A stretch of 64,000 nt of DNA from a phage, in sequence record PX418922.1, one strand, 5' to 3'. Both the position numbers and the translations under genes were made by a program. The notes under the pieces are model-generated. The model saw only the letters and a list, made by a program, of their open reading frames with translations. It had not been told where the DNA came from and searched no databases. Shown piece after piece: positions 1 through 41,557 of this stretch. Numbering within the stretch: position 1 is the stretch's first letter; each line of letters opens with the position of its first letter.

Positions 1-158
1 TCCCCATCATCTACTTTTAAATAAACAATGATTTCACTAAGGTCTAAACCATTTTCGTCAAATGCATTTTCATAGACGAAAGTATCTCCTACATCCAAAT
101 CTTTAATGGTAAGGCATCGTTTATTTACTTTTTGCTCATCAATTTCGAAGTTTAACAC
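1..158 (-). CDS. hypothetical protein, N-terminal part only (gene runs off left edge)
   Basis: Minus-strand frame open from GTG at 158-156 (AGGAGG just upstream) to the window edge; not in ORF track because it is truncated. Confidence 0.3.
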   Translation of the reverse strand, partial: MLNFEIDEQKVNKRCLTIKDLDVGDTFVYENAFDENGLDLSEIIVYLKVDDG

Positions 159-387
159 TTCTTCCTCCTAATGTTATCTCCGGTTTGTATATACGAAGAA
201 TTATAGCATTTTCATTTTCTTTGTCAACCCATTCTTCATAATCAGGCCATACATGAATCTCTACTCTACTTACAATATCTTCCATTCGCACAGTCCCAAT
301 GAAATACTCTTTGAGACTGCGCATAATGAAAGCTTCTCTCTCGCGCCAATAATTTTCTATGACTTGAGAGGCAAGCTCGTCGATCAT
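139..387 (-). CDS. hypothetical protein (82 aa)
   Basis: ORF track; tightly packed with the downstream vWA gene. Confidence 0.4.
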   Translation of the reverse strand: MIDELASQVIENYWREREAFIMRSLKEYFIGTVRMEDIVSRVEIHVWPDYEEWVDKENENAIILRIYKPEITLGGRSVKLRN

Positions 388-1178
388 TTTTTAGCACCTA
401 CTTTAACAACCCACTCTCCGAACTCTTCAGATAAGAGTTTGTCATAAAGCTCTGAATCTGTCAAGTCTAAATCTTTAATGCCAATAAAACCAACATTATC
501 ATAAGCATTTGCCAGTTCTTTCAGGAAGCCAAACTTCTCATTACCAACACCAACCATGAACCAATAAATAGGTTTATTCTTATTCTCTTCGATAAGACGA
601 CGAACAGCACTAGGATCACCATTCTCACCATCCGTCTGGAAGAATACAACACCAGGGGTAATGTCAGCACCTGGTTCAGATACAGCTACAACTTTTTCAC
701 GCTCTACAGACACTGTTTCAGTTTTACCAAGCAGACGATTAAAGAAGCCTTTCTTTGGAGCCTCCTCTTGTACCACTTGTTTAGTGGTAATATATTTAGT
801 AACAGTGCCAAAATACTCATCGTAGATATCCGCCATTACAGGGGCGTAATTTGTTCCACCTCCGATACGAACATTACGCATACATTTACCAACATAGTCA
901 TCGTAAACATCTGCTGTTGCTGGAGTAAGCTCTTGGGAACTCGTATTGAAGGCCCACATATCAATTTGTTGATTATCGTCGAACAGCATACCAAAAGGAA
1001 GCAGTTTACCTACAAAATCACTCACTACCCCATTAGAATATAGACCATGCATACTACCAGAAATATCTAGAGCACATGCTACACGAAGAACAATCTTACC
1101 TTCATTCAGGTTCTTATTCTTTTTCAGAGAGAAAGCAAGGTTTTCTTGACGTTTTTTCAGGCTGATTTTCTCGGACAT
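384..1178 (-). CDS. von Willebrand factor A domain protein (TerY-like)
   Basis: MIDAS motif DISGSM (DxSxS) near N-terminus; 264 aa; 4-nt overlap with neighbour. Confidence 0.6.
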   Translation of the reverse strand: MSEKISLKKRQENLAFSLKKNKNLNEGKIVLRVACALDISGSMHGLYSNGVVSDFVGKLLPFGMLFDDNQQIDMWAFNTSSQELTPATADVYDDYVGKCMRNVRIGGGTNYAPVMADIYDEYFGTVTKYITTKQVVQEEAPKKGFFNRLLGKTETVSVEREKVVAVSEPGADITPGVVFFQTDGENGDPSAVRRLIEENKNKPIYWFMVGVGNEKFGFLKELANAYDNVGFIGIKDLDLTDSELYDKLLSEEFGEWVVKVGAKK

Positions 1179-1179
1179 A

Positions 1180-1458
1180 TTATTTCTCCTTCTTAAGTGT
1201 AATATTGGTAACTTCTAAATCTACTTCCACCATATTTGTATCTGGTGGGATGCAATGAGTATAGCCTCGTTGTGCTAGTGATCCATTAATACAGATCGCA
1301 CTGTTTGTGGAATTTTTAATGAACACCAAGTTACGGTAGGTATCCAACCCTGCGTCTTCATAGGCATCATAATACATGAATGTGGCCCCTACGTCAAGAT
1401 CTTCGAAAGCAATAGGTAAATCCTGACTTTTTTCTTCTTGAATATTGAATCTAAACAC
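1180..1458 (-). CDS. hypothetical protein
   Basis: ORF track frame; start moved to GTG 5 nt after GAGGAGG, overlapping the upstream stop. Confidence 0.45.
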   Translation of the reverse strand: MFRFNIQEEKSQDLPIAFEDLDVGATFMYYDAYEDAGLDTYRNLVFIKNSTNSAICINGSLAQRGYTHCIPPDTNMVEVDLEVTNITLKKEK

Positions 1459-2014
1459 GCATACCTCCTCTACCAATTTTGAAGCCCAAATCGTAAGCTT
1501 CCTTGGTGATCTTTTGTAACTCACTTATAGGAAGTGTTACAAGAGGATCATCTTCTTCAATTTCCATCTTATCATCTTCTGTTTCAATGAGAGTATTATG
1601 CACTTTGTGATAAGGGTTGTCAACACGTTTAAACTTATTCTTTTCTGTGCTGAAAAAACAATCTGGATCTTCTTCGCCATCACCCCAACCTTGGTTAGGA
1701 TCTCCGTCAGATTGTTCTGTAGGGATTTCACCTGTAAAGTACTCTTCCAGCACCATAGCGATACCGTCCCTTGGATTTGAGGAATGCATCAAATCACAAA
1801 CCTTACCCCAATCCATAGCCCATTCGAACCGTTCACGAACGCCGTTTTCATCCTCCTTTCCAGAGAAAACACAACCATAACTATCATAGTTGCCATACAT
1901 CTCTTCAATAACAACACCGTCCTTCAAAAGAAAGAGATAACAAGGTGATCCGTCGAAAGAAGTAGAAAGGGCAGCTTTGCCCGATTCTTTGCACAAAAAG
2001 CTAAAACAACCCAT
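1451..2014 (-). CDS. hypothetical acidic protein (187 aa)
   Basis: ORF track; coding-like composition. Confidence 0.5.
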   Translation of the reverse strand: MGCFSFLCKESGKAALSTSFDGSPCYLFLLKDGVVIEEMYGNYDSYGCVFSGKEDENGVRERFEWAMDWGKVCDLMHSSNPRDGIAMVLEEYFTGEIPTEQSDGDPNQGWGDGEEDPDCFFSTEKNKFKRVDNPYHKVHNTLIETEDDKMEIEEDDPLVTLPISELQKITKEAYDLGFKIGRGGMRV

Positions 2015-2412
2015 TACAAACCCTCCTTCAGATTATCAAGAGCTACAGTGGTTTCACAAAATTCTCCATAAGCTTTATGATGTTCCAGAAAAGCTTCGGG
2101 TCCACCCCAGTCATTATCTTGTGTATTCCAGCCATCAATAAAAGCATCTTCAATGATTGTGATCAGTTCCTGTCGAGTCAACGTAATGGTATCAGGTTTC
2201 TGCGTAGTTTCCACACGGAACCCTGGTTCTTCATAAAAACCTTTAGTTACAATGGATTCTAACTCTTCTGCATCACAGAGGAAGTAGCCACAAAGATAAC
2301 ACCAACCGTCACCATCTTTCATTACTTCATAAACTTCACCACTTGCTAACTTGGTGAAAAGAGTAGGGTCTGTTACTGTAAGTTTTAAAAGAATACCTGT
2401 TGGATTATACAT
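2014..2412 (-). CDS. hypothetical protein (132 aa)
   Basis: ORF track. Confidence 0.5.
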   Translation of the reverse strand: MYNPTGILLKLTVTDPTLFTKLASGEVYEVMKDGDGWCYLCGYFLCDAEELESIVTKGFYEEPGFRVETTQKPDTITLTRQELITIIEDAFIDGWNTQDNDWGGPEAFLEHHKAYGEFCETTVALDNLKEGL

Positions 2413-2578
2413 CTTCTTCCTCCTCTAAAATATGGAACCCGTAATTACAATAATCCTGAAAGGTTTCGTGCGCAAGATCTTCTATATCCTCTTGAGACAT
2501 ATCATCTTCAATTTCGATATCCACAACCTCATTGCATCCACACCAAGCAGTTTCAATATTCACTCGTAATATTTTCAT
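2405..2578 (-). CDS. small hypothetical protein (57 aa)
   Basis: Read manually from reverse complement; ATG overlaps upstream stop (TAATG) and its stop overlaps the next start; below ORF-track size cutoff. Confidence 0.3.
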   Translation of the reverse strand: MKILRVNIETAWCGCNEVVDIEIEDDMSQEDIEDLAHETFQDYCNYGFHILEEEEDV

Positions 2579-2775
2579 TACTCCTCCTCCTCATTGAAGT
2601 CAATATCTGCAAGGAGTTCGAATTTACGGAAGTTACGACAACCTTCATAAATATAACAATCACGACAAACTGCTAGAACACTTGGGGGATATATACCTCC
2701 CATCGGTGCGAATCGTTTTTCGTCATCATAACGGACACCAATGTCTTCATCAATTATATAGATACGGATTCTCAT
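2578..2775 (-). CDS. small Cys-containing hypothetical protein (65 aa)
   Basis: ORF track; translationally coupled to the TelA-like gene. Confidence 0.4.
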   Translation of the reverse strand: MRIRIYIIDEDIGVRYDDEKRFAPMGGIYPPSVLAVCRDCYIYEGCRNFRKFELLADIDFNEEEE

Positions 2776-3884
2776 TTACCAAGCCCTCGTTTCACAGCAG
2801 CTACCATCCCGTCTTCCAGAGATTGAACTTCATTAATATAATCAACACGAGCAGCACGGGCTTCCGTATTGATGCGGTTAGTTTCTTCCAACATCTTAAC
2901 CAAGTTTTCCTGATCGTGACGCAGAGTTTCAATATCCAACACTTGACGGTTAGCCAGTGCTGCTGCTTCGATCTGATTCTGTGTGGCAAGATCGCTACCC
3001 AGTTTAATTGCCAGGTTAAATTCATCAAGAACGTTATTCTGCGTCTCTGCTGCTTTCATTTGACGTAAGCTCTCGATATACATTGAGAAGTTAGCAGAGT
3101 AAGCAGGAATAACATTATTTACTATGTTACGCGCAGATCGCATTAAGCTTGCAGAAACTTTTTGCATACCTTGTACACGCGGTCCCATTTGGACACACAG
3201 TAGGCGCAATGCTTTTAAATCTGCAATACGAATCTCCAGAAGATCCAAAGTATCTCGGATCACTTGTCGCTGTTCTACTGCATCTTCTGGAAGAGCAGCC
3301 AAAGCTTGTTCTTCTTTTTCATAGGTTGTTGTTAGAAGCTGCATATCTCGGTTCAAACTTGCAGCATATTGTCCAATAGCTTGATGTAGCTTTTCAAGAT
3401 ATACCAAAGAATCTTCTTCTTTGCGAATATCCATTTGAAGGTTCTTTACCAACTCTTCAATACGGTTATTAACATTATCAAACTCCCCAAACAGGTCTTC
3501 TTTCATACCCATAACTTTTTTAATGAGTTTAGTAATACCCTTGCTTTGTTTAATAGAGTTTGGATCAAGTTGTTTTGCCTGTTTAATCAAAGCTGTGAGT
3601 CGTTCACTCATCTGATCGCCTTGATTACTACGTTGATGTTTTAATACCTCGGCATTCAAGGAACGCAAGGTTGTTCCTGCCTCTGCCCCAATCTCTTCGA
3701 TCTCTTGTCGGGTCATAGAAGGCAAAACTGGAACTTCTTGCGGTGCGGCTGGTGCATAAACAGGACTGGCATCTAACACGCTTGGAGCGAATACAGATTT
3801 ACTTGCATCTGTTGTTGCAGCAAATACGCTCATTTCAGGCTTCTTCTGACCGCCAGTAGCTGCTTTTAAAAATGGACTTGTCAT
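2772..3884 (-). CDS. TelA-like coiled-coil protein (toxic anion resistance family)
   Basis: 370 aa, long heptad-like coiled-coil character; family assignment by resemblance only. Confidence 0.45.
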   Translation of the reverse strand: MTSPFLKAATGGQKKPEMSVFAATTDASKSVFAPSVLDASPVYAPAAPQEVPVLPSMTRQEIEEIGAEAGTTLRSLNAEVLKHQRSNQGDQMSERLTALIKQAKQLDPNSIKQSKGITKLIKKVMGMKEDLFGEFDNVNNRIEELVKNLQMDIRKEEDSLVYLEKLHQAIGQYAASLNRDMQLLTTTYEKEEQALAALPEDAVEQRQVIRDTLDLLEIRIADLKALRLLCVQMGPRVQGMQKVSASLMRSARNIVNNVIPAYSANFSMYIESLRQMKAAETQNNVLDEFNLAIKLGSDLATQNQIEAAALANRQVLDIETLRHDQENLVKMLEETNRINTEARAARVDYINEVQSLEDGMVAAVKRGLGK

Positions 3885-4471
3885 TCTTCATTCTCCTCTT
3901 CTGCATCTCTTATATATGGTGAAACACCGTACTCTTTAGCTACTTTAACCCAATCGTCCCATTTATACAACCATAATTTTCCTTCGGTCCCTTCTTTATC
4001 TGATTTCAACCACATATTAGGTTGCTTACCCGGGTACATGCGATTAGGTTTACGATTATAACCTCTAACACATCTTGTCGCAAACCTATCTACCAGAACA
4101 AGAACATATTTATACTCGTGGTTCAACGGCTCTTTGGAAGTGGCTTTAGGATTAGCCCCTAATTCTGCTGCCAGTTTTTGCCAATGAGCACCGTGCCTAC
4201 TAAACTTACCCATACAACCATCAATAGCATGAGCAATTTCGTGCTTCATTGTATCCACGATCATATCTCTTGTGGAGTTCTTATGCAAGTGCCAATTTAC
4301 AACAACAATTTTATCTCGGTAGTTGCACCAACCGAAAGAGTTATTCACTTTGTTTCTAACACAAGCTTTATATCCTGCTTCACGTAACATGTTGTAGTAA
4401 ACAGGAAAATCTTCTTTTATTTCCTGCATCACTTCCCACCACAAGAGTTGCAAGTCTCTCTCGGTATGCAT
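3881..4471 (-). CDS. SprT-like zinc metallopeptidase
   Basis: HExxH motif (HEIAHAIDG) in a 196-aa protein. Confidence 0.55.
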   Translation of the reverse strand: MHTERDLQLLWWEVMQEIKEDFPVYYNMLREAGYKACVRNKVNNSFGWCNYRDKIVVVNWHLHKNSTRDMIVDTMKHEIAHAIDGCMGKFSRHGAHWQKLAAELGANPKATSKEPLNHEYKYVLVLVDRFATRCVRGYNRKPNRMYPGKQPNMWLKSDKEGTEGKLWLYKWDDWVKVAKEYGVSPYIRDAEEENEE

Positions 4472-8702: not shown

Positions 8703-9351
8703 TTACAATTTCTCCTCTTTTAAGTTTCTCTAGTAAGTCGTTAGGGTTCTTAATATGACAGAAGTTAAATCCTAAGTCAACACATTTTCCATCATATTCT
8801 TCACTATCGCCTACGTGCAATACTTCGTGCCCTAACAGAGGGATCGGAGAATACGTGAGCGTGCGAGCAAAGAATCGCGGATCTGGTTTACAAAGTAAAG
8901 CTTCATCCGAGAAATGGGTGAACTCAAAACAATTCCAACTATCAAACTTACAAGCACGACGCAGGATATCCCCTGATATAAAGTTGGTATTGCTCTTAAT
9001 ACTCAAATCATAACGTCCCGAAAGATACAGCAAGTACATCGGCAGATCCACGGCTACGTGTGGTGGAAACTTAAGGAACCACTGTTCACACTCGAAACGA
9101 AGCTTTGCAGACTTCCAAGGTGTTATCCCAAGTTCAGAACCAAGTTTTTCCCAAGCGTATGCTGCACACTCGGCTTTGCCTTGAAGTGCTGCATTATCCA
9201 GTTCCTTTTTGATCTTCTTATAAGCTGCTCTTGCTTCCACTTCCGTAATATCTCCATATTTTGCGATAGTCCAGGCTCGCATGTCTGCGTAATTGGAGTT
9301 TGCTGTGATCAGTGTGTTCCATACATCAAAAGAGATATGTTTAATAGTCAT
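8695..9351 (-). CDS. HAD-like hydrolase (divergent motif I)
   Basis: N-terminal FDVWNTL and later HVGDS resemble HAD motifs; second Asp of motif I is absent. Confidence 0.4.
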   Translation of the reverse strand: MTIKHISFDVWNTLITANSNYADMRAWTIAKYGDITEVEARAAYKKIKKELDNAALQGKAECAAYAWEKLGSELGITPWKSAKLRFECEQWFLKFPPHVAVDLPMYLLYLSGRYDLSIKSNTNFISGDILRRACKFDSWNCFEFTHFSDEALLCKPDPRFFARTLTYSPIPLLGHEVLHVGDSEEYDGKCVDLGFNFCHIKNPNDLLEKLKRGEIVNA

Positions 9352-9352
9352 A

Positions 9353-9958
9353 TTAAGCCCACCATGCGTCTAAGTTAAGATTACTGTCCACTACCACTTG
9401 TTCTATGTGGTAGCCTTTTATCTGTATCCCACTGTTCAAGAGCATATCATACGCTTCATTGAAACGCAACTTATCTTCTGCGGAATATAAGCGAGCATTA
9501 TAAAATCGGTAATCAATTTCTTCAGCATTAGAAGAAATACGGAAGAAGTTTGTTTCTACTTCGGGATCACTTGCTGAAGTCTTAATGTGAACTTCTCCGT
9601 AATTTTCTTTACTTAGATCCATGAAAAGAACACAGGCAACATGTTTAAACATTCGTTCCAGTTTGTAACGAACAACATTGAAACCTGCATTCTCAAGTTT
9701 TTCTACACACTGCAACATTAAAGTAGTGTCGAGATCGCTTTGATACTTTGTTAACATACGATCACGTTGAGACTTTGTATCCCGATGTAAATCAATTGTT
9801 GTGCATTTGGCACCAATAATCTTAGCTGCTTTCATCAACTCTTCAGAACTAACGTTAGATAAAGTAAGATGAAAATGGGCTTTCCACACTTTTTTAGCAG
9901 GGACACCAAAAGATTTATCCCCACTATTCGGCATGCTGACTACTACACTATGTTGCAT
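9353..9958 (-). CDS. 2H phosphoesterase-like protein (LigT / cyclic phosphodiesterase family)
   Basis: Two HxT/S motifs: HFHLTL and VHIKTS. Confidence 0.45.
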   Translation of the reverse strand: MQHSVVVSMPNSGDKSFGVPAKKVWKAHFHLTLSNVSSEELMKAAKIIGAKCTTIDLHRDTKSQRDRMLTKYQSDLDTTLMLQCVEKLENAGFNVVRYKLERMFKHVACVLFMDLSKENYGEVHIKTSASDPEVETNFFRISSNAEEIDYRFYNARLYSAEDKLRFNEAYDMLLNSGIQIKGYHIEQVVVDSNLNLDAWWA

Positions 9959-27499: not shown

Positions 27500-27740
27500 T
27501 ATTTTAACTTTTTTCATTTTTAGAACAAAGGTGTCACTTTGTAGCACAGAAATAAGGCTCCTACAGCACCGTAGAGAGCCTGTTATTTTGTCCTATACAA
27601 ACCCTTGTCTTTTTCAGTTTGCATCACTAGGATTCGATCTAAGTAGGTTCCTGAAGGTCTACCAATAAGATTAAAGGTTATCTCAAATTACCACTACCTG
27701 TTATCTCAAAAATTCCTCAAATTATTTAAACTTTTTAAGA

Positions 27741-27920
27741 ATTTACAAAAGTGAAAGTTGAAAACCAAAATTTAAAGTTTAGGAAAATTATCTTAAAATG
27801 TCAGATACAAAACAAAACTCAAAAGTCAAGGAAAATTTTAAAAATTTTGCGCGCCCACAGTATTTAAAGTTTTTTTGCTTTTACAAAAATGAAAGTACAA
27901 AAGCAAAATTTAAAGTTTAC
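27741..27920. repeat. two ~40-bp imperfect direct repeats in an AT-rich intergenic region
   Basis: TTTACAAAAGTGAAAGTTGAAAACCAAAATTTAAAGTTTA (27741-27780) and TTTTACAAAAATGAAAGTACAAAAGCAAAATTTAAAGTTTAC (27879-27920). Confidence 0.6.
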
Positions 27921-27967
27921 AAAAATTTATGCAGATGGGAATGAGAAGAGTTCTCATGTGGAAATGC

Positions 27968-28046
27968 AAATGATAATGATTCGCATTTAGGTTTATAAAT
28001 GAGATTGATTCTTATTTAATAAAGTAAATGATAATCATTCTCATTT
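27968..28046. promoter_or_regulatory. three Fur-box-like palindromic sites
   Basis: AAATGATAATGATTCGCATTT, AAATGAGATTGATTCTTATTT, AAATGATAATCATTCTCATTT; core GATAATCATTCTC is 1 mismatch from the Fur-box 3' 13-mer. Confidence 0.4.
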
Positions 28047-28304
28047 AGAGAATGACGCGCAGGGGCGGTGTTTGTCTCGCGCTCCCGTGTCCCCTCGCCA
28101 TGTACTAAGAATAACAGATCCAGCCAGGAAAGCAAGCGATTATTTTATCTTTACATTTCTTTACAAATATATAGCGCCCAGCCTACCGGCGATCAACCTT
28201 CCAACCAGTGCCCCTGGTATGTTAGCCCCGCCTTTACGCCGTGGGGTGGCGCTTCCTCTTCTGTATGTAAAACAGTATAAGCCCTATCCCTGGGCTTGTC
28301 AAGA

Positions 28305-33783: not shown

Positions 33784-33990
33784 ATGATCACCGCAAAACA
33801 AGAAAAAATCATTATCGACGTTGCAGCCGTTGCCGCTATTGCTATTATTGGATCTTATTATGATACCCGTTTCCCGTCGGCTATGCATGAGATCGCCGCC
33901 GTTGCATCAGTTGGCGTGCTGTTTTACGTTGGTAAACGCTATTTATCACCAATGATTAACAAGCTGACACCGTGGAAAAATAAAGGTTGA
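33784..33990 (+). CDS. island small membrane protein (68 aa)
   Basis: Start moved downstream of hairpin; hydrophobic AAVAAIAIIG segment. Confidence 0.5.
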   Translation: MITAKQEKIIIDVAAVAAIAIIGSYYDTRFPSAMHEIAAVASVGVLFYVGKRYLSPMINKLTPWKNKG

Positions 33991-34041
33991 TCCTGTTTTA
34001 TATTGTGTTATAGTTATCGTGTAGGGCGGCAATGGTGCCGC
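33987..34041 (+). promoter_or_regulatory. island promoter + 5' leader hairpin (P15)
   Basis: TTGATC-N16-TATAGT-TATCGT-GTAG then GCGGCA-ATGG-TGCCGC. Confidence 0.5.
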
Positions 34042-34061
34042 GCCCCTTTGAGGATGCAATC

Positions 34062-34346
34062 ATGAGTAAAGCTAACACCGTGCTAATGTTTTCCCTGATT
34101 AATGATCCCGCTTACTTGTCCAACATGACGCAGGAGGGTAACACATTAACGGCAACATTCACCAATAAGCTTGACCGAGTGATCATCATCTCACTGAAAA
34201 CAGTTAGTAAAGGCTTTTACTCGTTAGCTTATCATTGGATCACTGATACCGATGAGACAAGCCAGGACTATAGCGCCCCTTTCCCTGAATCAATGGCACG
34301 GGAGATCATCGCCGCCGTTGTAAATGATGGTTTGTTTACTGCATAA
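34062..34346 (+). CDS. island small protein (94 aa)
   Basis: Start moved to ATG downstream of hairpin. Confidence 0.5.
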   Translation: MSKANTVLMFSLINDPAYLSNMTQEGNTLTATFTNKLDRVIIISLKTVSKGFYSLAYHWITDTDETSQDYSAPFPESMAREIIAAVVNDGLFTA

Positions 34347-34363
34347 ATAATTTAGAAAAAGGC

Positions 34364-34422
34364 TTGCAATCATTTTGAGATAGTGTATATTTAATTCATA
34401 GGGCGGCGGGAATAGTTCCCAA
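34364..34422 (+). promoter_or_regulatory. island promoter + 5' leader hairpin (P16)
   Basis: TTGCAA-N16-TATATT-TAATTC-ATAG then GGGAA-TAG-TTCCC. Confidence 0.5.
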
Positions 34423-34443
34423 AGCAAACGAGAGGATTACACG

Positions 34444-34563
34444 ATGAGCAAGTACACAGTAGAATACACGGTAGAGAATCCGGCAGTATCCGAAGGTAAA
34501 AAGATGACATTTGCCATCAGTATAATCGCTTTCGTTGTCACTATCTTATCAATCATCTTATAA
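34444..34563 (+). CDS. hydrophobic micro-protein (39 aa)
   Basis: Read manually (MSKYTVEYTVENPAVSEGKKMTFAISIIAFVVTILSIIL). Confidence 0.35.
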   Translation: MSKYTVEYTVENPAVSEGKKMTFAISIIAFVVTILSIIL

Positions 34564-34573
34564 GGTACACACC

Positions 34574-34735
34574 ATGAAAATAACAGACATTATCAAAGAG
34601 ATCGCCCTTGCCGCTGGCGTTGAAGTCGAGGAAGTGATCGCGCTCAATCTTACAGAAAACGATCTGCGCAACTATGAAGCGGAAAGCGTGAAAGCAAGCG
34701 GCGCGGTCCTGGTATATGATCCGGCTAACAAGTAA
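34574..34735 (+). CDS. island small protein (53 aa)
   Basis: Start moved to MKITDII... Confidence 0.4.
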   Translation: MKITDIIKEIALAAGVEVEEVIALNLTENDLRNYEAESVKASGAVLVYDPANK

Positions 34736-34744
34736 GGGGGTAAC

Positions 34745-34855
34745 ATGAATCCGAAAGATATGCAAGCATGGAAAGGGTACGACGATCTAAGCGCCTTGCG
34801 CAATAAGTCAAGCCGTAACTTTAGACGGTTGGAAGCAAAGAAAAAGAAAAAATAG
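34745..34855 (+). CDS. basic micro-protein (36 aa)
   Basis: Read manually (MNPKDMQAWKGYDDLSALRNKSSRNFRRLEAKKKKK); GGGGG upstream. Confidence 0.35.
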   Translation: MNPKDMQAWKGYDDLSALRNKSSRNFRRLEAKKKKK

Positions 34856-34856
34856 T

Positions 34857-34912
34857 TTGACAAGTCCGCCTAGTCTGATAATATGTATCTTGTAGGGCGG
34901 CAATGGTGCCGC
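34857..34912 (+). promoter_or_regulatory. island promoter + 5' leader hairpin (P17)
   Basis: TTGACA-N16-TAATAT-GTATCTT-GTAG then GCGGCA-ATGG-TGCCGC. Confidence 0.55.
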
Positions 34913-34933
34913 TCACAAGAAGAGAGAAAAATC

Positions 34934-35218
34934 ATGAAAATTACAAAAAGCCTAACTAATTATGCAGCACGTCGCGGATTATGTTTAACCGTTGAAAACT
35001 TAGGGAAAGAAGACTTTTTGTGTTTTTGGGAGCTTGAGAATGATTGCGAGTGGATGTTTTCTTATTCTATCTGCGAAGATCAAAACGGTTGTTTGTTAAC
35101 CTGGCGCGGTAATATCTATTTACCGGAAGAAATTAAAGAAGAGTTACCAGGTACGATCATGACAGAGAGACAGCTTAAGGAAGTGATCAATTTTGTAGGG
35201 CAAAACATTAAAAAATAA
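34934..35218 (+). CDS. island small protein (94 aa)
   Basis: Start moved downstream of hairpin; AGAGAGA RBS. Confidence 0.5.
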   Translation: MKITKSLTNYAARRGLCLTVENLGKEDFLCFWELENDCEWMFSYSICEDQNGCLLTWRGNIYLPEEIKEELPGTIMTERQLKEVINFVGQNIKK

Positions 35219-35219
35219 T

Positions 35220-35280
35220 TTGACAGCAGGCAAACAACGTAGTAAAGTTTACCACATAGGGCGGCGGAATGGTCCACCGC
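35220..35280 (+). promoter_or_regulatory. island promoter + 5' leader hairpin (P18)
   Basis: TTGACA-N17-TAAAGT-TTACCAC-ATAG then GGCGGCGGA-ATGG-TCCACCGC. Confidence 0.55.
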
Positions 35281-35303
35281 TCACAACAGAAGAGAAACAA
35301 ATC

Positions 35304-35474
35304 ATGATCCCGACTATGTTTTATGTATCGCGCAAAGGTCACAATATTTTTTGGTCTGAAGATTTAAATGAAGCTATGACGTTTGCCCGTGATCGTGTTG
35401 CTATCGGTGGCGTTAACATCACCGTAACCGATGAAAATGGCATTGAATACTATAACGGCGACGATGAAGAATAA
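35304..35474 (+). CDS. island small protein (56 aa)
   Basis: Start moved to MIPTMFYV... Confidence 0.45.
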   Translation: MIPTMFYVSRKGHNIFWSEDLNEAMTFARDRVAIGGVNITVTDENGIEYYNGDDEE

Positions 35475-35479
35475 TTAAT

Positions 35480-35512
35480 GAGGCGGGGGAGTATTCCCCG
35501 CCGTCAATAAAG
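35480..35512 (+). promoter_or_regulatory. orphan leader-type hairpin with no recognisable promoter
   Basis: GGCGGGGGA-GTA-TTCCCCGCC immediately ahead of the RBS of 35522. Confidence 0.4.
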
Positions 35513-35521
35513 AGGTAAATC

Positions 35522-35791
35522 ATGAAAATATCATTAGACGTTGCAATCAAGGCCATCGAATCCGGTTACACCCTGGTAAAAGATGATAAGGCTAAAACCG
35601 TGCACCACGTTAACAAAGAAACAGGCGAAAGCATGATCACATATAAAGCCGCCTACTTTCTCCAATCAGTAGCAGATCCGCGCGTACAACGCCAGGTTAC
35701 AGCGGCTATTGCTAAAAAATTATGTGCTTTACAGGGCACAAGTTTTAACGAGATCGCCCCGTGTTTTGACTGGTCGAGCTTGAAAAAATAG
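35522..35791 (+). CDS. island small protein (89 aa)
   Basis: ORF track. Confidence 0.5.
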   Translation: MKISLDVAIKAIESGYTLVKDDKAKTVHHVNKETGESMITYKAAYFLQSVADPRVQRQVTAAIAKKLCALQGTSFNEIAPCFDWSSLKK

Positions 35792-35792
35792 T

Positions 35793-35845
35793 TTGACAAC
35801 AATTATAAATCGGGTAGAATGTATTTCGTAGGGCGGGGCAATGGT
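35793..35845 (+). promoter_or_regulatory. island promoter with degenerate hairpin (P19)
   Basis: TTGACA-N16-TAGAAT-GTATTTC-GTAG then GGGCGGGGCAATGGTGCAACGCC. Confidence 0.45.
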
Positions 35846-35872
35846 GCAACGCCTACTAATGAGGGTAAAATC

Positions 35873-35977
35873 ATGTTAGAGAAAATTTTCACGGTTGTAG
35901 TAGTGGGCCTGGTGTTATCGGTTGGAGTGGTTGCAACTATGGCTAACATGATCCTATCTTCCCACGGTATTGGATAA
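35873..35977 (+). CDS. hydrophobic micro-protein (34 aa)
   Basis: Read manually (MLEKIFTVVVVGLVLSVGVVATMANMILSSHGIG). Confidence 0.35.
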   Translation: MLEKIFTVVVVGLVLSVGVVATMANMILSSHGIG

Positions 35978-35987
35978 GGTGAATCAA

Positions 35988-36203
35988 ATGATCACGAATA
36001 AGACAGGTAAAACAGAATTTTTACGCGCCTTGCAGATCGGCAAGCCTGAGATCTGGCATTGCACTAAATCCGCGCATAATGAAATGAAAGATTTTACCGC
36101 TACTTTACAACGTGTTAAAATATCTATCACACAGAAAAAAGCCTTGTTAGTAGTAGAAAACGAGATCCCGCAAACTATTATTATTGTCGAGCGTACAGCA
36201 TGA
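35988..36203 (+). CDS. island small protein (71 aa)
   Basis: Start moved from TTG to the in-frame ATG. Confidence 0.45.
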   Translation: MITNKTGKTEFLRALQIGKPEIWHCTKSAHNEMKDFTATLQRVKISITQKKALLVVENEIPQTIIIVERTA

Positions 36204-36586
36204 AAACAGAAATCATTATTGAAATCATCAACGGTTATAAAGAAGCCTTTATTTTTGCTGAATCAGCAAGGGATCATGAAGGTAATTTTATTGATAACTT
36301 AGACGATTATGATTTTTCTCCTAGCGTGGATCAACGGATCGCCCAGGATGTAACAGCCTTTATTAATGCTAATCTTGCCGCTATCTCTGAGGCAATGAGC
36401 GACGGCGCAACAGCCAACCAGATCGGGAATGATTTACATTTTACCCGTAACGGTCACGGCGTAGGCTTTTGGGATCGCCCTGAAATATACACCACTAACA
36501 CGGCGAACCGCCTAACCAATGCAGCTAAGTTTATGCCGAACGTGTCGGCTTACATTGGTGAAGATAATTTGATTTATATTGAATAA
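36200..36586 (+). CDS. island small protein (128 aa)
   Basis: ORF track; ATGA coupling. Confidence 0.5.
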   Translation: MKTEIIIEIINGYKEAFIFAESARDHEGNFIDNLDDYDFSPSVDQRIAQDVTAFINANLAAISEAMSDGATANQIGNDLHFTRNGHGVGFWDRPEIYTTNTANRLTNAAKFMPNVSAYIGEDNLIYIE

Positions 36587-36592
36587 AAAGTA

Positions 36593-36650
36593 TTGACACC
36601 GATCCCCAATATGGTACTATTTACCACGTAGGCGGGAAATGGTTTCCCGC
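36593..36650 (+). promoter_or_regulatory. island promoter + 5' leader hairpin (P20)
   Basis: TTGACA-N16-TACTAT-TTACCAC-GTAG then GCGGGAA-ATGG-TTTCCCGC. Confidence 0.55.
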
Positions 36651-36674
36651 CAGGTAATCAAAAAGGTAAATACT

Positions 36675-37064
36675 ATGCGCAACCTGGTTTCTGTTTCTAA
36701 CGTTGAAAAATTTCAATCTTTACAGGGTATCGTTAACAACGTAGCGCCTTTTTTAGTCAACGGCTTGATTGCAAAGATGAAAAATAAACATCATGCGGCA
36801 TGGTCTGCTTACTGCTTTGATAATGATGAAAAAGCGGCTGAAATGATGTTAAATATGCTGTTAGACAGTGTAGAATCATCTTTACCGGAAAACATCGCAG
36901 AAGAGATCACCTATCGTTATAATATGGCGATCACTTACCAGGAGGTTGCGCAATTTAATATGATGGACGATGACGAACAACAGGATCAGGAAATGTTTTG
37001 GGAGTATGCTGATCGTCAATCGGCTTTTGATGAAAAATTAGCGATGTATTATAACGAATATTAA
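36675..37064 (+). CDS. island small protein (129 aa)
   Basis: Start moved downstream of hairpin. Confidence 0.5.
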   Translation: MRNLVSVSNVEKFQSLQGIVNNVAPFLVNGLIAKMKNKHHAAWSAYCFDNDEKAAEMMLNMLLDSVESSLPENIAEEITYRYNMAITYQEVAQFNMMDDDEQQDQEMFWEYADRQSAFDEKLAMYYNEY

Positions 37065-37080
37065 TACACGGTAAAAGAAA

Positions 37081-37105
37081 GGGGCGCACTAAGCGCCCTT
37101 TTTTG
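37081..37105 (+). terminator. intrinsic terminator
   Basis: GGGCGC-ACTAA-GCGCCC then TTTTTTG. Confidence 0.65.
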
Positions 37106-37448
37106 TATTCTTTTTTCACGATGGAAACAACACGTAAAGAATAGGCGTAAAGGTGGCGTAAAACCATCTAAAACCGACTGTAACCGCTTAAACAAGGTAG
37201 GAATGATTAATCACCTTGCCAGGATGAAAAAGCCGTTATAAAGCTATCTAGAGCGTTTAAAGCACATAGGAAATAATTTGCTTTTTATCTTGCCTTTTAC
37301 CCTGCTTTTGATTATTATTATGGAACGGGCGGCACCTGGAGACAGGGGAAGATAATCACCGGAAGATCCCGCTATATATTGATAGCTAATACCTATTAAA
37401 CAACAAAACATCAAAGGAATAAACTATCAAATCTTTACAATTCTACCT

Positions 37449-37495
37449 ATTGACACCGGATCGCCCTTATACTAAGATGTATCACGTAGGGCAAA
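37449..37495 (+). promoter_or_regulatory. island promoter without clear hairpin (P21)
   Basis: TTGACA-N17-TAAGAT-GTATCAC-GTAGGGC; hairpin degenerate. Confidence 0.45.
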
Positions 37496-37524
37496 TGATT
37501 TTAAACGGTAAACGAGGAATCACC

Positions 37525-37908
37525 ATGAGCAATATCATCAACCTGGCAGCGACTGTAAACGGTAAAGACTTTAACGGCGCTGTAGACCGTGATCCTATGT
37601 GGTACTTGTCAGTGTTTAAAGGCGATCTGGTTGAAGTTAGAACAACCGAAGGGTATAGCGATGATTATAAATGCGAGATTCATTTACATAATTGGTACAC
37701 GGGTAAAACTTATGCGCTGAATCACGCGTTTATCGGAAAAATCGAATATCGTGAGATGATCGACGAAGAAACGGGGCAAGATTTTAGCGAAAACGTTTAT
37801 ATTCGTTCCGAGACATTAGCCGAACGTTTGATCGAGAAAATGAAAGCAAAAAATAAAATTAATTTATCTCATTGGATTGATATAACAAACGATCCAGCTT
37901 ATCAGTAA
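37525..37908 (+). CDS. island small protein (127 aa)
   Basis: Start moved to MSNIINLAAT... Confidence 0.5.
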   Translation: MSNIINLAATVNGKDFNGAVDRDPMWYLSVFKGDLVEVRTTEGYSDDYKCEIHLHNWYTGKTYALNHAFIGKIEYREMIDEETGQDFSENVYIRSETLAERLIEKMKAKNKINLSHWIDITNDPAYQ

Positions 37909-37924
37909 ATAACATTTCATACCA

Positions 37925-37950
37925 GGGCGCACAAAGCGCCCTTTCTTTTT
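37925..37950 (+). terminator. intrinsic terminator closing the island
   Basis: GGGCGC-ACAAA-GCGCCC then TTTCTTTTT. Confidence 0.65.
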
Positions 37951-39529
37951 GCCCGAACAATGTTGATAGATTCCGCCTATGGAAAACCGACACAGAACAA
38001 AACTGAATAAATAGCGGTATCAAGCTAATCAACCATTAAATGAATAACCATACCTCCCAGGGTAACAGGCTGTTAGAGAGCCATTTAAAGCGGTTAAAAT
38101 CGATCAACAACCAACAACAAACCATCAAAAACACCCTTTTACCTCCTTTCTAGTGCAATGATAACCATTATCATCTATCCATGTTTATCTATACAATATA
38201 AGTGCATAATTATAATGTTGATAATAGTTCGCAACAACTAACCAACAAACAACATAAAACAATAAGCAAACTAATCATAATCAAAGGAATAATAGCAAGA
38301 TGATTGATAACAACAAACAATCAAACCATGATGAATACTAAGCAAGATAACGATAACACGACAAAACAACCAACTAACGAACAATAACAAACGAAACCAT
38401 TAAAATAATAACTATTGCCATAATAGTGACTAAATGAAATCATTACAAAACGAATCATTCACAGAGTCATCATTAGCACGCTATGCCGGACACATAGCGA
38501 GCTAATAATAAGCCAACTACACCCCAACAATCATAACCATCGGTGATGGTTATTTCTTGTTACTGCGTAGCTTGCAATAATTGCAAGCGTAATGACGCTT
38601 ACACTTATTGCGCTGGCTTATTATTAGCATTATATGTAATTACCAAGATCATAACATTAGCGCAATAACAATAATCATTGTGGTAATTACGTAAGGAAAC
38701 AATTAGCATGGCAATAATTATGGGGCAATGGGAGGATGATTATCATCATTCCGATACATTGCACACTATGCACATAATAGAATAAAAAGCAATAATTTTG
38801 GGGGCGAAATGTTACCGCCACAGGCGGGAATGTTGAGCACTAAGAAAAGAGATAAACCTTAATCATGGGGGCGTAAATATCCGCAGGATTGCCAACGGCG
38901 ATCCGGTAGGATGTTGAGCATCTTCTCTTAAACGTAAATAAAATCAGAAAATTCTTGATTTATTTTAGTTTTTATGTTAATAAACGTTTAAATAATAATC
39001 ATTCTCATATAAATAATAGTCTGCTTGTCATGAGCGGGATTAGTTGACAATGTTCCGTCATATGATGAAGTTGCCAACCTATTGATAAATAAGTGTTTGT
39101 GTGATTTATAATCAAGTGGCCCACCTTGTCGCTACGTTGGCATAAGCCTTGCATAAGTCATTGAATACGAATGATAATTATTCTCATTCGCATGATATTT
39201 GGGAATTGTCGCTGCGTGGACCTGACGGCCCGAAAATTCGCGTTAAGCACTTCTTACGTATGCGCCATGATTTTTGCCATATGATATTGATTCTATTAGA
39301 TATTCTTGCCATGATTGCCATGAAACAGGGTGTCCCGAAATAATCTTTCCCCGTAGATATTTTGGGTTACTTTTTATACAAGAGTGGGGTGTCAAAAATA
39401 ATCGGTATATATGGGATAATTGATAGGAATCCCCTATGATAATTCGATTGTAATTCCCTGAGATTGATCGTATGATGTTGGTGATTGATGATTGCCATGA
39501 AAGATGGCTAACGATGAGAGGAGATTATC
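37951..39529. other. 1.6-kb non-coding, repeat-rich region with strand-skewed A+C content
   Basis: No ORF of 60 aa or more; CAACAA/ACAAAC low-complexity runs; palindromes; Fur-box-like sites at 38991-39010 and 39169-39189. Confidence 0.5.
38570..38588. repeat. 19-bp palindrome
   Basis: GCTTGCAAT-A-ATTGCAAGC, 9-bp arms. Confidence 0.6.
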
Positions 39530-39904
39530 ATGCAAGAGAGTAAAAATATTCCGTTGAGCAGTGCAGCATTGCTTCGCTTCTATAAAGCATGGATTGCCAA
39601 CTATCCTGCAATGAATCGCACAACGAGTGGCTTATGTGGTTGTCTGGTGGATTATGTAGATGATTTTGTTGGTGAGACAACTAGAGAAGAAGATAGAAGA
39701 TGGCGGGATAGTTTGTTGGACCGTTTGAAATATGAAATGAGGAGACAATTTACATGTGCAGGGCTGGACTATAATCTTCCGTTCAATGCAGATTGCATGG
39801 ATTACCTTTCAGAGTGTATAAACTTGGCGTGTCATACCAACACGTTACGTCTTCAGTGGGTGAAAGACAGAATTGAAGATGCAAATAATGTTTGCATTGA
39901 ATAA
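39530..39904 (+). CDS. hypothetical protein, paralog family A copy 1
   Basis: Shares Y..W......GLC.CL....PF.....WVKD pattern with 44137, 49930, 51236. Confidence 0.5.
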   Translation: MQESKNIPLSSAALLRFYKAWIANYPAMNRTTSGLCGCLVDYVDDFVGETTREEDRRWRDSLLDRLKYEMRRQFTCAGLDYNLPFNADCMDYLSECINLACHTNTLRLQWVKDRIEDANNVCIE

Positions 39905-39963
39905 AAATGTCTGTATAGTGGTTTGCATACCGCGCATAACAGATAGCCAATGAGGAGATTGAA

Positions 39964-40173
39964 ATGTCAAATATGAAAACTGTATCCTTGTATTTAGCTA
40001 ACACTGATCGTGTGCACACCCTTGCTAACGCAAGTCGTGTACTCGTGCAGTTCCGAAACTTTAAGCCGTCCGTTGTGACAGGCAGTGAAACGTGTGTTAT
40101 CGATTTCATTAACGAATACTTCCGAGGGAATCCGGTTGGTCGTTACTTTATTAAGGGTTTGAAGGATGCATAG
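39964..40173 (+). CDS. hypothetical protein (69 aa)
   Basis: ORF track. Confidence 0.45.
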   Translation: MSNMKTVSLYLANTDRVHTLANASRVLVQFRNFKPSVVTGSETCVIDFINEYFRGNPVGRYFIKGLKDA

Positions 40174-40396
40174 TATGAAACGCATGAAAATTCGTATTGA
40201 GAATGATGGTGGTTATAAAGGATTGGCACATGCAAAATTTCCACTTGTGTTGGAAGCTACGGTGGAATACAGTGGGCTTGCTCATGTGCGATTCTCGAAG
40301 ATGATGGAAGTGCAGGAATGGTTTTGGGACGAGATAGATGCACGAGAAGGAGAAGATTATGTTTTCTTTCCTCACGAATATAACATTGTTTATTAA
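40166..40396 (+). CDS. hypothetical protein, paralog family B copy 1
   Basis: Shares W.WF..D.....DYVFF..E.N with 44847. Confidence 0.45.
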   Translation: MHSMKRMKIRIENDGGYKGLAHAKFPLVLEATVEYSGLAHVRFSKMMEVQEWFWDEIDAREGEDYVFFPHEYNIVY

Positions 40397-40399
40397 AGG

Positions 40400-40648
40400 T
40401 TGTGTGCAATGATCACACCACAACAGAATGAAGCAGCAATGGATCTTCTTGATAGTTTGTATTTCGATAATTGGTACTCTGAATGTGAATGGATGAATAT
40501 GCAAACTCTGAAAGAGAAGACAAAAGCGTTGATTACAGTAGATCAATTTCTTGCAGAGACGGAAAGAATGAATTATGATATGGCATCTCGCGCACGACGC
40601 GTTTCCATTTTCAATAAAATGTTAGCATTATGGGGAGGTAGAAAATGA
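40400..40648 (+). CDS. hypothetical protein (82 aa)
   Basis: ORF track. Confidence 0.45.
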   Translation: MCAMITPQQNEAAMDLLDSLYFDNWYSECEWMNMQTLKEKTKALITVDQFLAETERMNYDMASRARRVSIFNKMLALWGGRK

Positions 40649-41106
40649 GACAACCATCTATACTGGAAGCGCATGTGCAATGTGTTGTAGATTATGTCAA
40701 AGAACACTCAAGTTTGTTGAATGTAACCTGTGCAGTGCAAAATGATGTAGGTATTGTCTGTGTGCAACATATCTTATCTGAAACTCGTTATGAAGTATTT
40801 CGTGCCACGTTGTTTGGATGTGATCGAGTGCATGTAAACTTCCTGGACTCCAATTATCGTTATGCTTTAGAAAATATTGATGATTATCTTCCTTGCTCTC
40901 CGACAGGATATGTAATGGTAACAGCAAACGAAGTAACACCGAGCAACAGTGAACAGGAAGCTTTGTTACGGAAGAAAATACGCCAACTGCAAGTGTTGAA
41001 TGAACTGAAAGAAGAGATTGAAAAAGAACTGAAAGAAGATTTTGGTATGCTTCCAAAAGACGCTTTGAAATGGTATGATGAGTTAGGAGGAGAGAACAAT
41101 GTTTAA
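40645..41106 (+). CDS. hypothetical protein (153 aa)
   Basis: ORF track. Confidence 0.5.
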   Translation: MRQPSILEAHVQCVVDYVKEHSSLLNVTCAVQNDVGIVCVQHILSETRYEVFRATLFGCDRVHVNFLDSNYRYALENIDDYLPCSPTGYVMVTANEVTPSNSEQEALLRKKIRQLQVLNELKEEIEKELKEDFGMLPKDALKWYDELGGENNV

Positions 41107-41557
41107 AGAAGGTCATGTCTACCGTTTCCAGGATGAGGATTATATGCGATTATATTCTACCTTTGATAACAGTATTGCTGCTATCATTGGAGAGAATTTT
41201 TTCGAGGTGTTGAGCACTGATGCAAATGGTAATATCTTGTCAATGGTTGTAATAGGTATGAGAGACGGTATTATCACTGCTGGTGATGGGGATCGTTACA
41301 TAATCAATTCTGCTCATATAGATTATTTTGTTGACGGTGGTGTTCGTGGTGGTCGTGGAAAACCCCAAGAAGAACCTGTTGATACAACAAAAGAAGAGTG
41401 GTATGTTGTAATGACTGATGACACCTGTATTTCTGGATTTGAAAGTTATGAAGAAGCTTTGAAAGAAGCAGCAGAGCATAAAATGGCTAATCCTACAGAA
41501 GAGGTTGAAGTTTATAAACGTTTGGTTGTTGCTACCATCGGCGTATCTTTTGTTTAA
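41099..41557 (+). CDS. hypothetical protein (152 aa)
   Basis: ORF track. Confidence 0.5.
   Translation: MFKEGHVYRFQDEDYMRLYSTFDNSIAAIIGENFFEVLSTDANGNILSMVVIGMRDGIITAGDGDRYIINSAHIDYFVDGGVRGGRGKPQEEPVDTTKEEWYVVMTDDTCISGFESYEEALKEAAEHKMANPTEEVEVYKRLVVATIGVSFV

Follow-up and report, generated by a model that had tools for sequence, protein, structure and literature searches.

A conserved gene-free block in a Phapecoctavirus genome as the probable junction of the two ends of a terminally redundant chromosome

At the concatemer junction of phages T7 and T3, a short terminal repeat is accompanied by pac signals and an inverted repeat in the unique DNA of the right end. The cos site of bacteriophage lambda consists of the nicking site cosN and of cosB with the IHF site I1, and one staggered cut leaves cohesive ends of 12 nt. 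Phage phi29 has a folded packaging RNA (pRNA), about 170 nt long, whose sequence lies near a chromosome end. For T5, Davison (bioRxiv 10.1101/866236) described an untranslated “repeat region 3”, or injection stop signal, on the border of the long terminal repeat. Genomes of the subfamily Stephanstirmvirinae terminate in direct terminal repeats (DTRs) (PMC12695924), and the DTR itself is already known and annotated in relatives of the phage considered here. The subject of this work is a gene-free block of about 1.6 kb (positions 37951-39529) in a 64,000-nt stretch of phage DNA from sequence record PX418922.1, the whole of which is referred to as the window. It is proposed that this block is very probably the site at which the physical right end of a linear, terminally redundant chromosome joins the left end, i.e., the packaging or terminus region.

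The window belongs to Phapecoctavirus, phAPEC8-like myoviruses of the Stephanstirmvirinae with genomes of about 150 kb. About fifty Phapecoctavirus genomes share 95-98% identity with the block and its flanks, and more distant matches (about 70-80% identity) were found in Justusliebigvirus (phi92-like) and in Klebsiella and Citrobacter members of the subfamily. In the records of four linear relatives, the chromosome ends fall inside the homologous block. The linear record of Schickermooser (NC_048196.1) carries an exact 329-bp repeat at both ends, which maps to 38917-39245 of the window; its authors gave the length of the terminal repeat as 328 bp (Korf et al., 2019, PMC6563267). Exact terminal repeats of 328 bp, with the same ends as in Schickermooser, are present in Mt1B1_P17 and WPEC1. 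For phi92 (FR775895.2), the annotation gives DTR-L at 1-343 and DTR-R at 148270-148612, 343 bp each; the last gene is separated from the repeat by 1.1 kb of non-coding DNA, and 355 bp separate the repeat from gene 001. Since the terminal repeats of the relatives map inside the block, the window is a circularly closed form, and the block consists of the untranslated tail of the right end (37951-38916), the repeat (38917-39245), and the untranslated leader of the left end (39246-39529); the single copy of the repeat reflects this representation, in which the repeat is collapsed. Judging from these relatives, this isolate probably has the same ends.

The boundaries of the repeat are fixed and sequence-specific. 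All four linear records end at GTTG^AGC and CGCGTT(A)^AGCA, where ^ marks the end, and both motifs are present in the window. In Schickermooser, Mt1B1_P17, WPEC1, and phi92 the left motif coincides with a record end, and it is kept in every lineage in which it was found. phi92 and Schickermooser are only about 72% identical in this region, yet their deposited ends lie at the same place in the same short motif; the independently deposited ends in these two genera read TGTTG^AGC and CGCGTTA^AGCAC. In wider context, the left boundaries of this pair are ...TTTGTTG^AGCCTACTTTCTTAAAAG and ...GAATGTTG^AGCAAGTTCTCTTAAACG, and the right ones ...ATCGCGTTA^AGCACC and ...TTCGCGTTA^AGCACT. When the extended contexts were used, the distance between the left and right motifs was 321-344 bp in all 13 sequences in which both were matched, a set that includes ASO2A, phiWec181, Citrobacter Tr1, Klebsiella phi1_175008 and KP2025, phiWec187, and ECGD1. 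The initial annotation, made from the letters of the window, had considered the block a possible structural element, and this was right in substance: the block holds the chromosome ends, the DTR, and the cut sites. The annotation did not recognize the terminal repeat, however, and took the ATGTTGAGCA repeats, the palindromes, and the Fur-like boxes discussed below as unconnected oddities.

Several observations weigh against this assignment. Most deposited relatives are permuted arbitrarily, and several records end elsewhere in the block, e.g., ESCO5 and ESCO37 at about position 39169 of the window and ESCO13 at about 37986. The ends in the window were placed from the records of relatives, and those of Schickermooser and phi92 were taken as deposited. 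In BME3 (PP239276.1), a 342-bp DTR called with PhageTerm lies about 70 bp to the right of the phi92 position. This DTR abuts a junction to the hairpin loop of the folded element described below, of which a part is present in two copies in BME3, and the record appears rearranged; the BME3 repeat has the right length, but, being displaced by about 70 bp and adjoining a rearranged junction, it was not used as evidence. The 8-mer GTTRAGCA also occurs elsewhere in the window (11 matches versus 5.1 expected), and this 8-mer alone is weak evidence; the weight lies in its position at the boundaries and in the conserved context. A short hairpin, ATCC-GGTA-GGAT (38901-38912), abuts the left site, but its sequence is lineage-specific and it is missing in the phi92 group. 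Finally, the approximately 970 bp of conserved DNA upstream of the repeat are not obviously needed for packaging alone. The high confidence expressed here applies to the identity of the terminus; each of the sub-mechanisms considered below is rated much lower. The features of the block, under the assignment proposed, are collected in Table 1.

Table 1. Features assigned to the gene-free block and the terminator preceding it, in window coordinates.
Feature	Coordinates	Strand	Basis or remark
Intrinsic terminator after the last gene on the right chromosome arm	37924-37950	+	Stem 37924-37942, then T-run
Untranslated tail of the right chromosome end	37951-38468		A+C-rich, G-poor block 38100-38450
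Fur-box-like palindrome 1, AATGATAACCATTATCAT	38157-38174		Kept across genera; overlaps sigma-70-like -35
Folded element, 164 nt, five to six helices	38469-38632		RNAalifold and covariation
Helix P0	38479-85/38493-99		Invariant loop CCGGACA
Helix P1	38501-15/38614-28		
Helix P2a	38517-21/38566-70		
Helix P2	38533-41/38545-53		
Helix P3	38571-77/38581-87		Invariant palindrome
Helix P4	38588-95/38605-12		
Variable spacer, degenerate units of about 70-80 bp	38633-38916		Units from near 38711, 38789, and 38860, each with G-run GGGGGCG
Putative left boundary cut motif GTTG^AGCA, then conserved TTCTCTTAAA	38913-38920	+	Cut between 38916 and 38917; record ends
Direct terminal repeat, about 329 bp, single copy here	38917-39245		Record ends of relatives
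Fur-box-like palindrome 2, AATAATAATCATTCTCAT, inside the repeat	38991-39008		phi92 copy is AATGATAATCATTATC
IHF consensus site TATCAATAGGTTG (WATCAANNNNTTR)	39075-39087	-	Distances to the two cut sites, 165 and 164 bp
Fur-box-like palindrome 3, AATGATAATTATTCTCAT, inside the repeat	39170-39187		Kept across genera
Putative right boundary cut motif GTT(A)^AGCA, conserved GGGG..C.GAAAATTCGCG before it	39242-39249	+	Record ends
Untranslated leader of the left chromosome end	39246-39529	+	Ribosome-binding site, then ATG of the first gene at 39530

The repeated ATGTTGAGCA motif pointed out in the initial annotation is indeed present, at 38830-38839 and 38911-38920, and its two copies are the left cut site and an upstream duplicate of it. 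The duplicate GTTG AGCA (38832-38839) accompanies an extra unit of about 81 bp (38836-38916), in which the module of G-run, hairpin, and GTTG-AGCA is duplicated and which Schickermooser does not have. WPEC1 and Citrobacter Tr1 each contain two copies of the left motif, like the window. The repeat in the window was placed at the proximal copy because the WPEC1 repeat begins at this copy, the one followed by TTCTCTTAAA. The number of spacer units differs between close relatives, which results in BLAST matches in two pieces.

Near the midpoint of the repeat, an IHF consensus was found in 12 of the 13 delimitable repeats. The WATCAANNNNTTR consensus is kept and its N tetrads vary (TAGG, TGGT, CTAC, TCAC, TCGG, TAGT, and TGGC); a fixed consensus with drifting N positions is the pattern expected of a used site, and IHF may bind here. 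The Fur-box-like palindromes at 38991 and 39170 flank this predicted site within the repeat. By analogy with T7-type phages with short DTRs and with lambda cos, a mechanism can be proposed in which replicated concatemers would contain one copy of the repeat per junction. Terminase would recognize sequences in the right-end tail and cut the two copies of GTTR^AGCA that bound the repeat, the cuts being, as in the T7 type, nicks on opposite strands, and strand-displacement synthesis would then supply every packaged chromosome with a repeat of its own. The two cut sites might be juxtaposed by IHF bending the DNA at the midpoint of the repeat. Further cis signals could be provided by the Fur-box-like palindromes and the 164-nt element, which might help terminase to recognize the DNA, take part in duplicating the repeat, or control the incoming end. 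The cutting agent and the strand cut are, as the other steps, suggested by the same analogy.

The second structural component of the block is the folded element. The initial annotation listed a 19-bp palindrome (GCTTGCAATAATTGCAAGC, 38570-38588) and a second palindrome (ATAACCATC-GGT-GATGGTTAT, 38533-38553); both are there, and both are part of one 164-nt structure. In an alignment of 14 sequences, 98.8% of the cells are paired and 12 of the 46 pairs have changed on both sides. None of 500 shuffles reached the observed values, and slid controls gave at most three pairs changed on both sides. For a version with an extended P4, 98.5% of the cells are paired and 13 pairs have changed on both sides. 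The P3 palindrome, the P0 loop, and the junction CAACTACAC are invariant, and within Phapecoctavirus the element is 98-100% identical, above its flanks. Between the strands of P4 (38596-38604 in the window), some relatives contain extra hairpins, CAATATAC-loop-GTATATTG in the phi92 group and ATGATGTAT-GTGA-TACATCAT in Klebsiella KP2025, which are unrelated to each other. Scans of IMG/VR with short patterns (GCTTGCAANNNTTGCAAGC and TCGCGTTAAGCANNNCT) returned mostly chance matches, with true relatives on only four contigs; a longer pattern applied to metagenome contigs gave 10 true loci with about five new sequence types. With six metagenomic sequences added, the 20 distinct sequences contain 806 Watson–Crick pairs, 3 G-T, 3 A-C, and no other combination. 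In this sample of about six lineages, the near absence of wobble pairs is suggestive of pairing as DNA or on both strands. Compared with shuffled sequences, the fold has z-scores of -8.5 for plus-strand RNA, -8.8 for minus-strand RNA, and -7.8 for plus-strand DNA. An alternative fold of 38574-38612, in which the 5' arm and the loop of the palindrome pair with 38605-12 around an inner hairpin AAGCG/CGCTT, is the minimum-energy fold of the single sequence and has some covariation; it was set aside, with 89% of cells paired versus 98-100% for the consensus, and a switch between the two folds is possible.

It is tentatively suggested that the 164-nt element may be an undescribed folded cis-acting signal, acting as single-stranded DNA or RNA, that directs terminase loading or duplication of the repeat, that host Fur and IHF may be recruited to the chromosome ends, and that the Fur-type palindrome might be a host-factor site common to unrelated virulent coliphages (phi92-like, rV5-like, and T5-like) for the handling of DNA ends, possibly coupled to iron status; as a whole, this proposal is to be regarded as speculative. 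A comparably low probability is assigned to a non-coding RNA gene or a long non-coding transcript, the latter already raised in the initial annotation, and such a transcript would be compatible with a chromosome terminus. A promoter at about 38168-38197, overlapped by palindrome 1, would drive a rightward RNA with the unstructured A/C-rich stretch as its 5' part and the 164-nt folded domain as its 3' part. The sigma-70-like sequence TTATCA-18-TACAAT, with its -35 element within the palindrome, would fit this idea, as would the covariation-supported five-helix fold with its strongly negative z-score, a T-run after the P2 hairpin, and the invariant loop and junction, which are expected of a recognized RNA. 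However, the -10 element is TGCAAT in most relatives and thus lacks the key A, the A/C-rich character is not kept in the phi92 group, and only 3 G-U pairs out of 812 would be unusual for RNA, fitting pairing as DNA or on two strands better. No Rfam family matches 38469-38632 even at E≤1, and no Phapecoctavirus expression data (RNA-seq) were found in the literature searched.

The same stems can be considered from the perspective of replication. The block might be an origin or a priming signal, with the multi-hairpin element, folded as single-stranded DNA, loading a primase or helicase close to the end of the chromosome and with the palindromes as initiator-binding repeats. Stems built almost exclusively from Watson–Crick pairs and the stability of the fold with DNA parameters would be consistent with this, and the same palindrome occurs in a second gene-free, AT-rich, repeat-rich, origin-like region of the window (27500-28070). 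There are, however, no DnaA boxes (TTWTNCACA) in 37900-39600, the cumulative GC skew has no sign change beyond a local dip, no initiator gene is adjacent, and nothing links the element to replication rather than to packaging. The origin is considered unlikely, and the suggestion of a replication element in the initial annotation is not supported by these data. A candidate iteron motif, GAAATCATTAGCA, was unconvincing (7 matches versus 3.5 expected). Chi is likewise absent from the block.

Two Fur-box-like sites were named in the initial annotation and both were recovered (palindromes 2 and 3), together with a third, palindrome 1. The 18-mer AATGATAATCATTCTCAT has 9 matches in the window at ≤3 mismatches versus 0.23 expected, and 30 sites in the window match the Fur consensus at ≥14 of 19 positions versus 4.2 in Markov shuffles. 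As in the Fur box (GATAATGATAATCATTATC; 7-1-7 form TGATAATnATTATCA), the AATGATAATCATTCTCAT-type sites are palindromic, clustered, and conserved, and they match the consensus at 14-16 of 19 positions or, in its 7-1-7 form, at 12-13 of 14. Unlike in the Fur box, the phage consensus prefers ATTCTCA in one half, and a consistent overlap with promoters is missing: only palindrome 1 overlaps a sigma-70-like match (TTATCA-18-TACAAT, 38168-38197), palindromes 2 and 3 have no canonical promoter spacing, and a fixed promoter position was dropped as an explanation since the geometry is inconsistent. The palindromes are confined to two places, the block (38157, 38991, and 39170) and the second gene-free region (27969, 27999, and 28027). 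The same palindrome is present in Vequintavirinae, and in the T5-like Salmonella phage Kenya-K37 four to five copies of AAATGAGAAT-N-ATTCTCATTT lie inside the annotated DTR (9250-9450 of the record), in the area of the T5 untranslated “repeat region 3”. Because the palindrome is common to unrelated phages of the same hosts, a host protein is suggested, with Fur, which may bind these sites, as the obvious candidate.

In the second gene-free region, the three palindromes lie within 27969-28044, the one at 27999 on the minus strand, and the region contains long AT-rich direct repeats (TTTACAAAAGTGAAAGT...AAAATTTAAAGTTTA, twice). Its 3' part together with GC-rich 28046-28110 matches 348 phage records, including those of Vequintavirinae and of Cronobacter, Erwinia, and Salmonella phages. 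The corresponding sequence carries the label tRNA-Met/tRNA-Ile in one record, but ARAGORN found no tRNA there. This region may be an origin or a small RNA gene.

The distribution of the palindrome also underlies a further possibility, that the block is a landing pad for host factors controlling DNA entry or early expression in the manner of T5 repeat region 3, with Fur and IHF bound to the incoming end. The array of the palindrome AAATGAKAATNATTCTCATTT that a T5-like phage carries in its terminal repeat, where T5 has repeat region 3, its presence in Vequintavirinae, the host protein to which unrelated phages of the same hosts point, and the match to the 7-1-7 consensus would all agree with it. 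However, the signal proposed for T5 rests on DnaA boxes, which do not occur here, two-step injection is not known for these myoviruses, the palindromes are not consistently placed relative to promoter-like hexamers, and binding of Fur and IHF is predicted only. This explanation is somewhat less probable still than the origin.

The gene-free status of the block claimed in the initial annotation was upheld, and all of the motifs that it listed were recovered. The longest open reading frames (ORFs) in 37951-39529 have 64, 57, 50, and 49 amino acids, and in a nine-genome alignment 0 of 13 ORFs (36-64 amino acids) are open beyond the closest relatives, although the DNA is still alignable; the stops or frameshifts in the tested ORFs appear in phiWec181 or in more distant relatives. 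The homologous 1.5-2.2 kb were left empty in the carefully annotated genomes of ASO2A, Schickermooser, phi92, phiWec181, and Mt1B1_P17, and ORFs of 30-80 amino acids were called in the homologous block by automatic pipelines only. That unannotated small protein genes or decayed pseudogenes fill the block is very improbable: 7-10 small ORFs were called here by automatic annotation of some relatives and two minus-strand ORFs (38210-38390) are open within Phapecoctavirus, but every ORF of at least 36 amino acids is interrupted in other lineages, open frames are to be expected on the minus strand because it is poor in A, and the conservation maxima coincide with palindromes and paired stems instead of reading frames. 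No match was found in the whole window with Rfam at gathering thresholds; over 36000-41500, nothing relevant appeared with Rfam at E≤1. ARAGORN found no tRNA. Every element of the block is conserved, and the synteny comparison proposed in the initial annotation found the block in all Stephanstirmvirinae lineages sampled, i.e., neither absent nor variable in the sense considered there. The genes on either side are both on the plus strand.

The terminator placed before the block in the initial annotation was recovered in a terminator scan; it is kept in all lineages and annotated as such in ASO2A and Schickermooser. In ASO2A 1-4040, homologous to about 33900-37950 of the window, an annotated intrinsic terminator of its own stands behind almost every short early gene, which suggests read-through (antitermination) control of the early gene array. 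To the right of the terminator, the first approximately 80 nt of the tail (37962-38033) are conserved even in Vequintavirinae, with 77% identity to TH18 over 37924-38028. An analogous 1.6-kb gene-free region follows a homologous 369-nt gene in TH18 (2490-4122). It starts with the same terminator and first approximately 100 nt. Next come a block rich in A and C, in which two Fur-like palindromes lie, then several long-range inverted repeats of 15-16 bp, and finally a G/T-rich block that mirrors the first; both the 164-nt element and the GTTR^AGC motif are absent from this region.

The A+C-rich top strand noted in the initial annotation holds for 38000-38480 (A 46%, C 21%, G 11%, and T 23%; GC skew -0.31, AT skew +0.34) but not to the right of about 38900, where the skews reverse. 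Over 38000-39500 the polarity switches near the left boundary of the repeat, the top strand being A/C-rich on the left and T/G-rich on the right, a mirror arrangement also seen in TH18; the strand with its 3' end at the terminus would thus be poor in G at either chromosome end. A G-poor top strand (G 9-13%) is found in all lineages, and the excess of A over T is 0.32-0.34 in Phapecoctavirus and phiWec181, 0.12-0.17 in Citrobacter and Klebsiella phages, and absent in the phi92 group. Possible causes of the skew are an untranslated spacer that loads Rho or a strand-specific property of chromosome ends. A 128-bp periodicity of the A/C-rich block did not hold as a tandem repeat. At the other end, the leader contains a conserved block at 39386-39427 (GGGGTGTCAAAAATAATCGGTATATATGGGATAATTGATAGG) and sigma-70-like matches at 39315-39344 and 39448-39476. 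The initial annotation was also correct about a repeated ATGATTGCCATGAAA, with copies at 39311-39325 and 39488-39502, the second about 30 nt before the start codon of the first gene. In Citrobacter and Klebsiella relatives, ATGATTGTCATGAAA stands at the place of ATGATTGCCATGAAA, before an inserted gene. Possible roles of ATGATTGCCATGAAA are those of an operator or of a motif in a leader RNA.

In annotations, these 1.6 kb should be labeled as a chromosome terminus with the repeat at 38917-39245, and not filled with small hypothetical genes as in several automatic annotations of relatives, which would also give genomes of this group a biologically meaningful point at which to be opened. The pair of cut motifs, the central IHF site, the Fur-type palindromes, and the covarying element constitute a compact conserved set of testable candidate signals for packaging and end handling. 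This phage group is widely used for therapy candidates, and cloning, engineering, and packaging-competent vectors require these sites to be known. In the literature searched, no description was found of the common cut motif, the central IHF site, the palindromes common with T5-like and rV5-like phages, or the covarying element. That the same palindrome is present on the border of the T5 terminal repeat points to a host factor common to phage DNA ends, an idea not encountered in the literature searched.

Comparison with the known systems reveals likenesses on different levels. T5 repeat region 3 is a 1.2-kb conserved gene-free block straddling the boundary of the repeat and full of direct repeats, inverted repeats, and palindromes; a palindrome of the type ATGAGAAT-N-ATTCTCAT is common to it and the block described here. 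Unlike here, the T5 repeat is about 10 kb long, the T5 model needs DnaA boxes paired within inverted repeats, such boxes being absent from the block, and the phage family is unrelated. Like the phi29 pRNA, the 164-nt element is a folded element of similar length close to a phage chromosome end, but its pairing is almost exclusively Watson–Crick, the phage type and the packaging chemistry differ, and its transcription is hypothetical; no Rfam match was found in the element, hence none to a pRNA family if Rfam holds one. With lambda cos, the block has in common site-specific cutting, presumably by terminase, and an IHF-type bend, predicted here, beside the cut sites; unlike lambda cos, there are two sites about 329 bp apart that bound a duplicated repeat.

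The likeness to the T7/T3 concatemer junction extends further. In both, there is one short repeat per junction, the ends are site-specific, early promoters (here predicted) lie to the right of the repeat, and non-coding sequences, putatively for recognition, and hairpin-forming repeats lie just to its left. There is, however, no sequence similarity, and neither a central IHF site nor a motif common to both boundaries is known from T7; unlike T7/T3, phages of this group presumably use the host RNA polymerase. The closest described systems are the DTRs of phi92 and Schickermooser. The records and papers examined for these phages give the repeat length only, with no internal signals. The window differs from both in its extra unit of about 81 bp with a second left motif and in its ends, which are predicted from those of relatives. 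The phi92 and Schickermooser DTRs are homologous to the repeat in the window and are embedded in the same layout of last gene, terminator, about 1 kb of non-coding DNA, a 329-343-bp repeat, a leader of about 300 bp, and first gene, and their boundary motifs are the same as those of the window.

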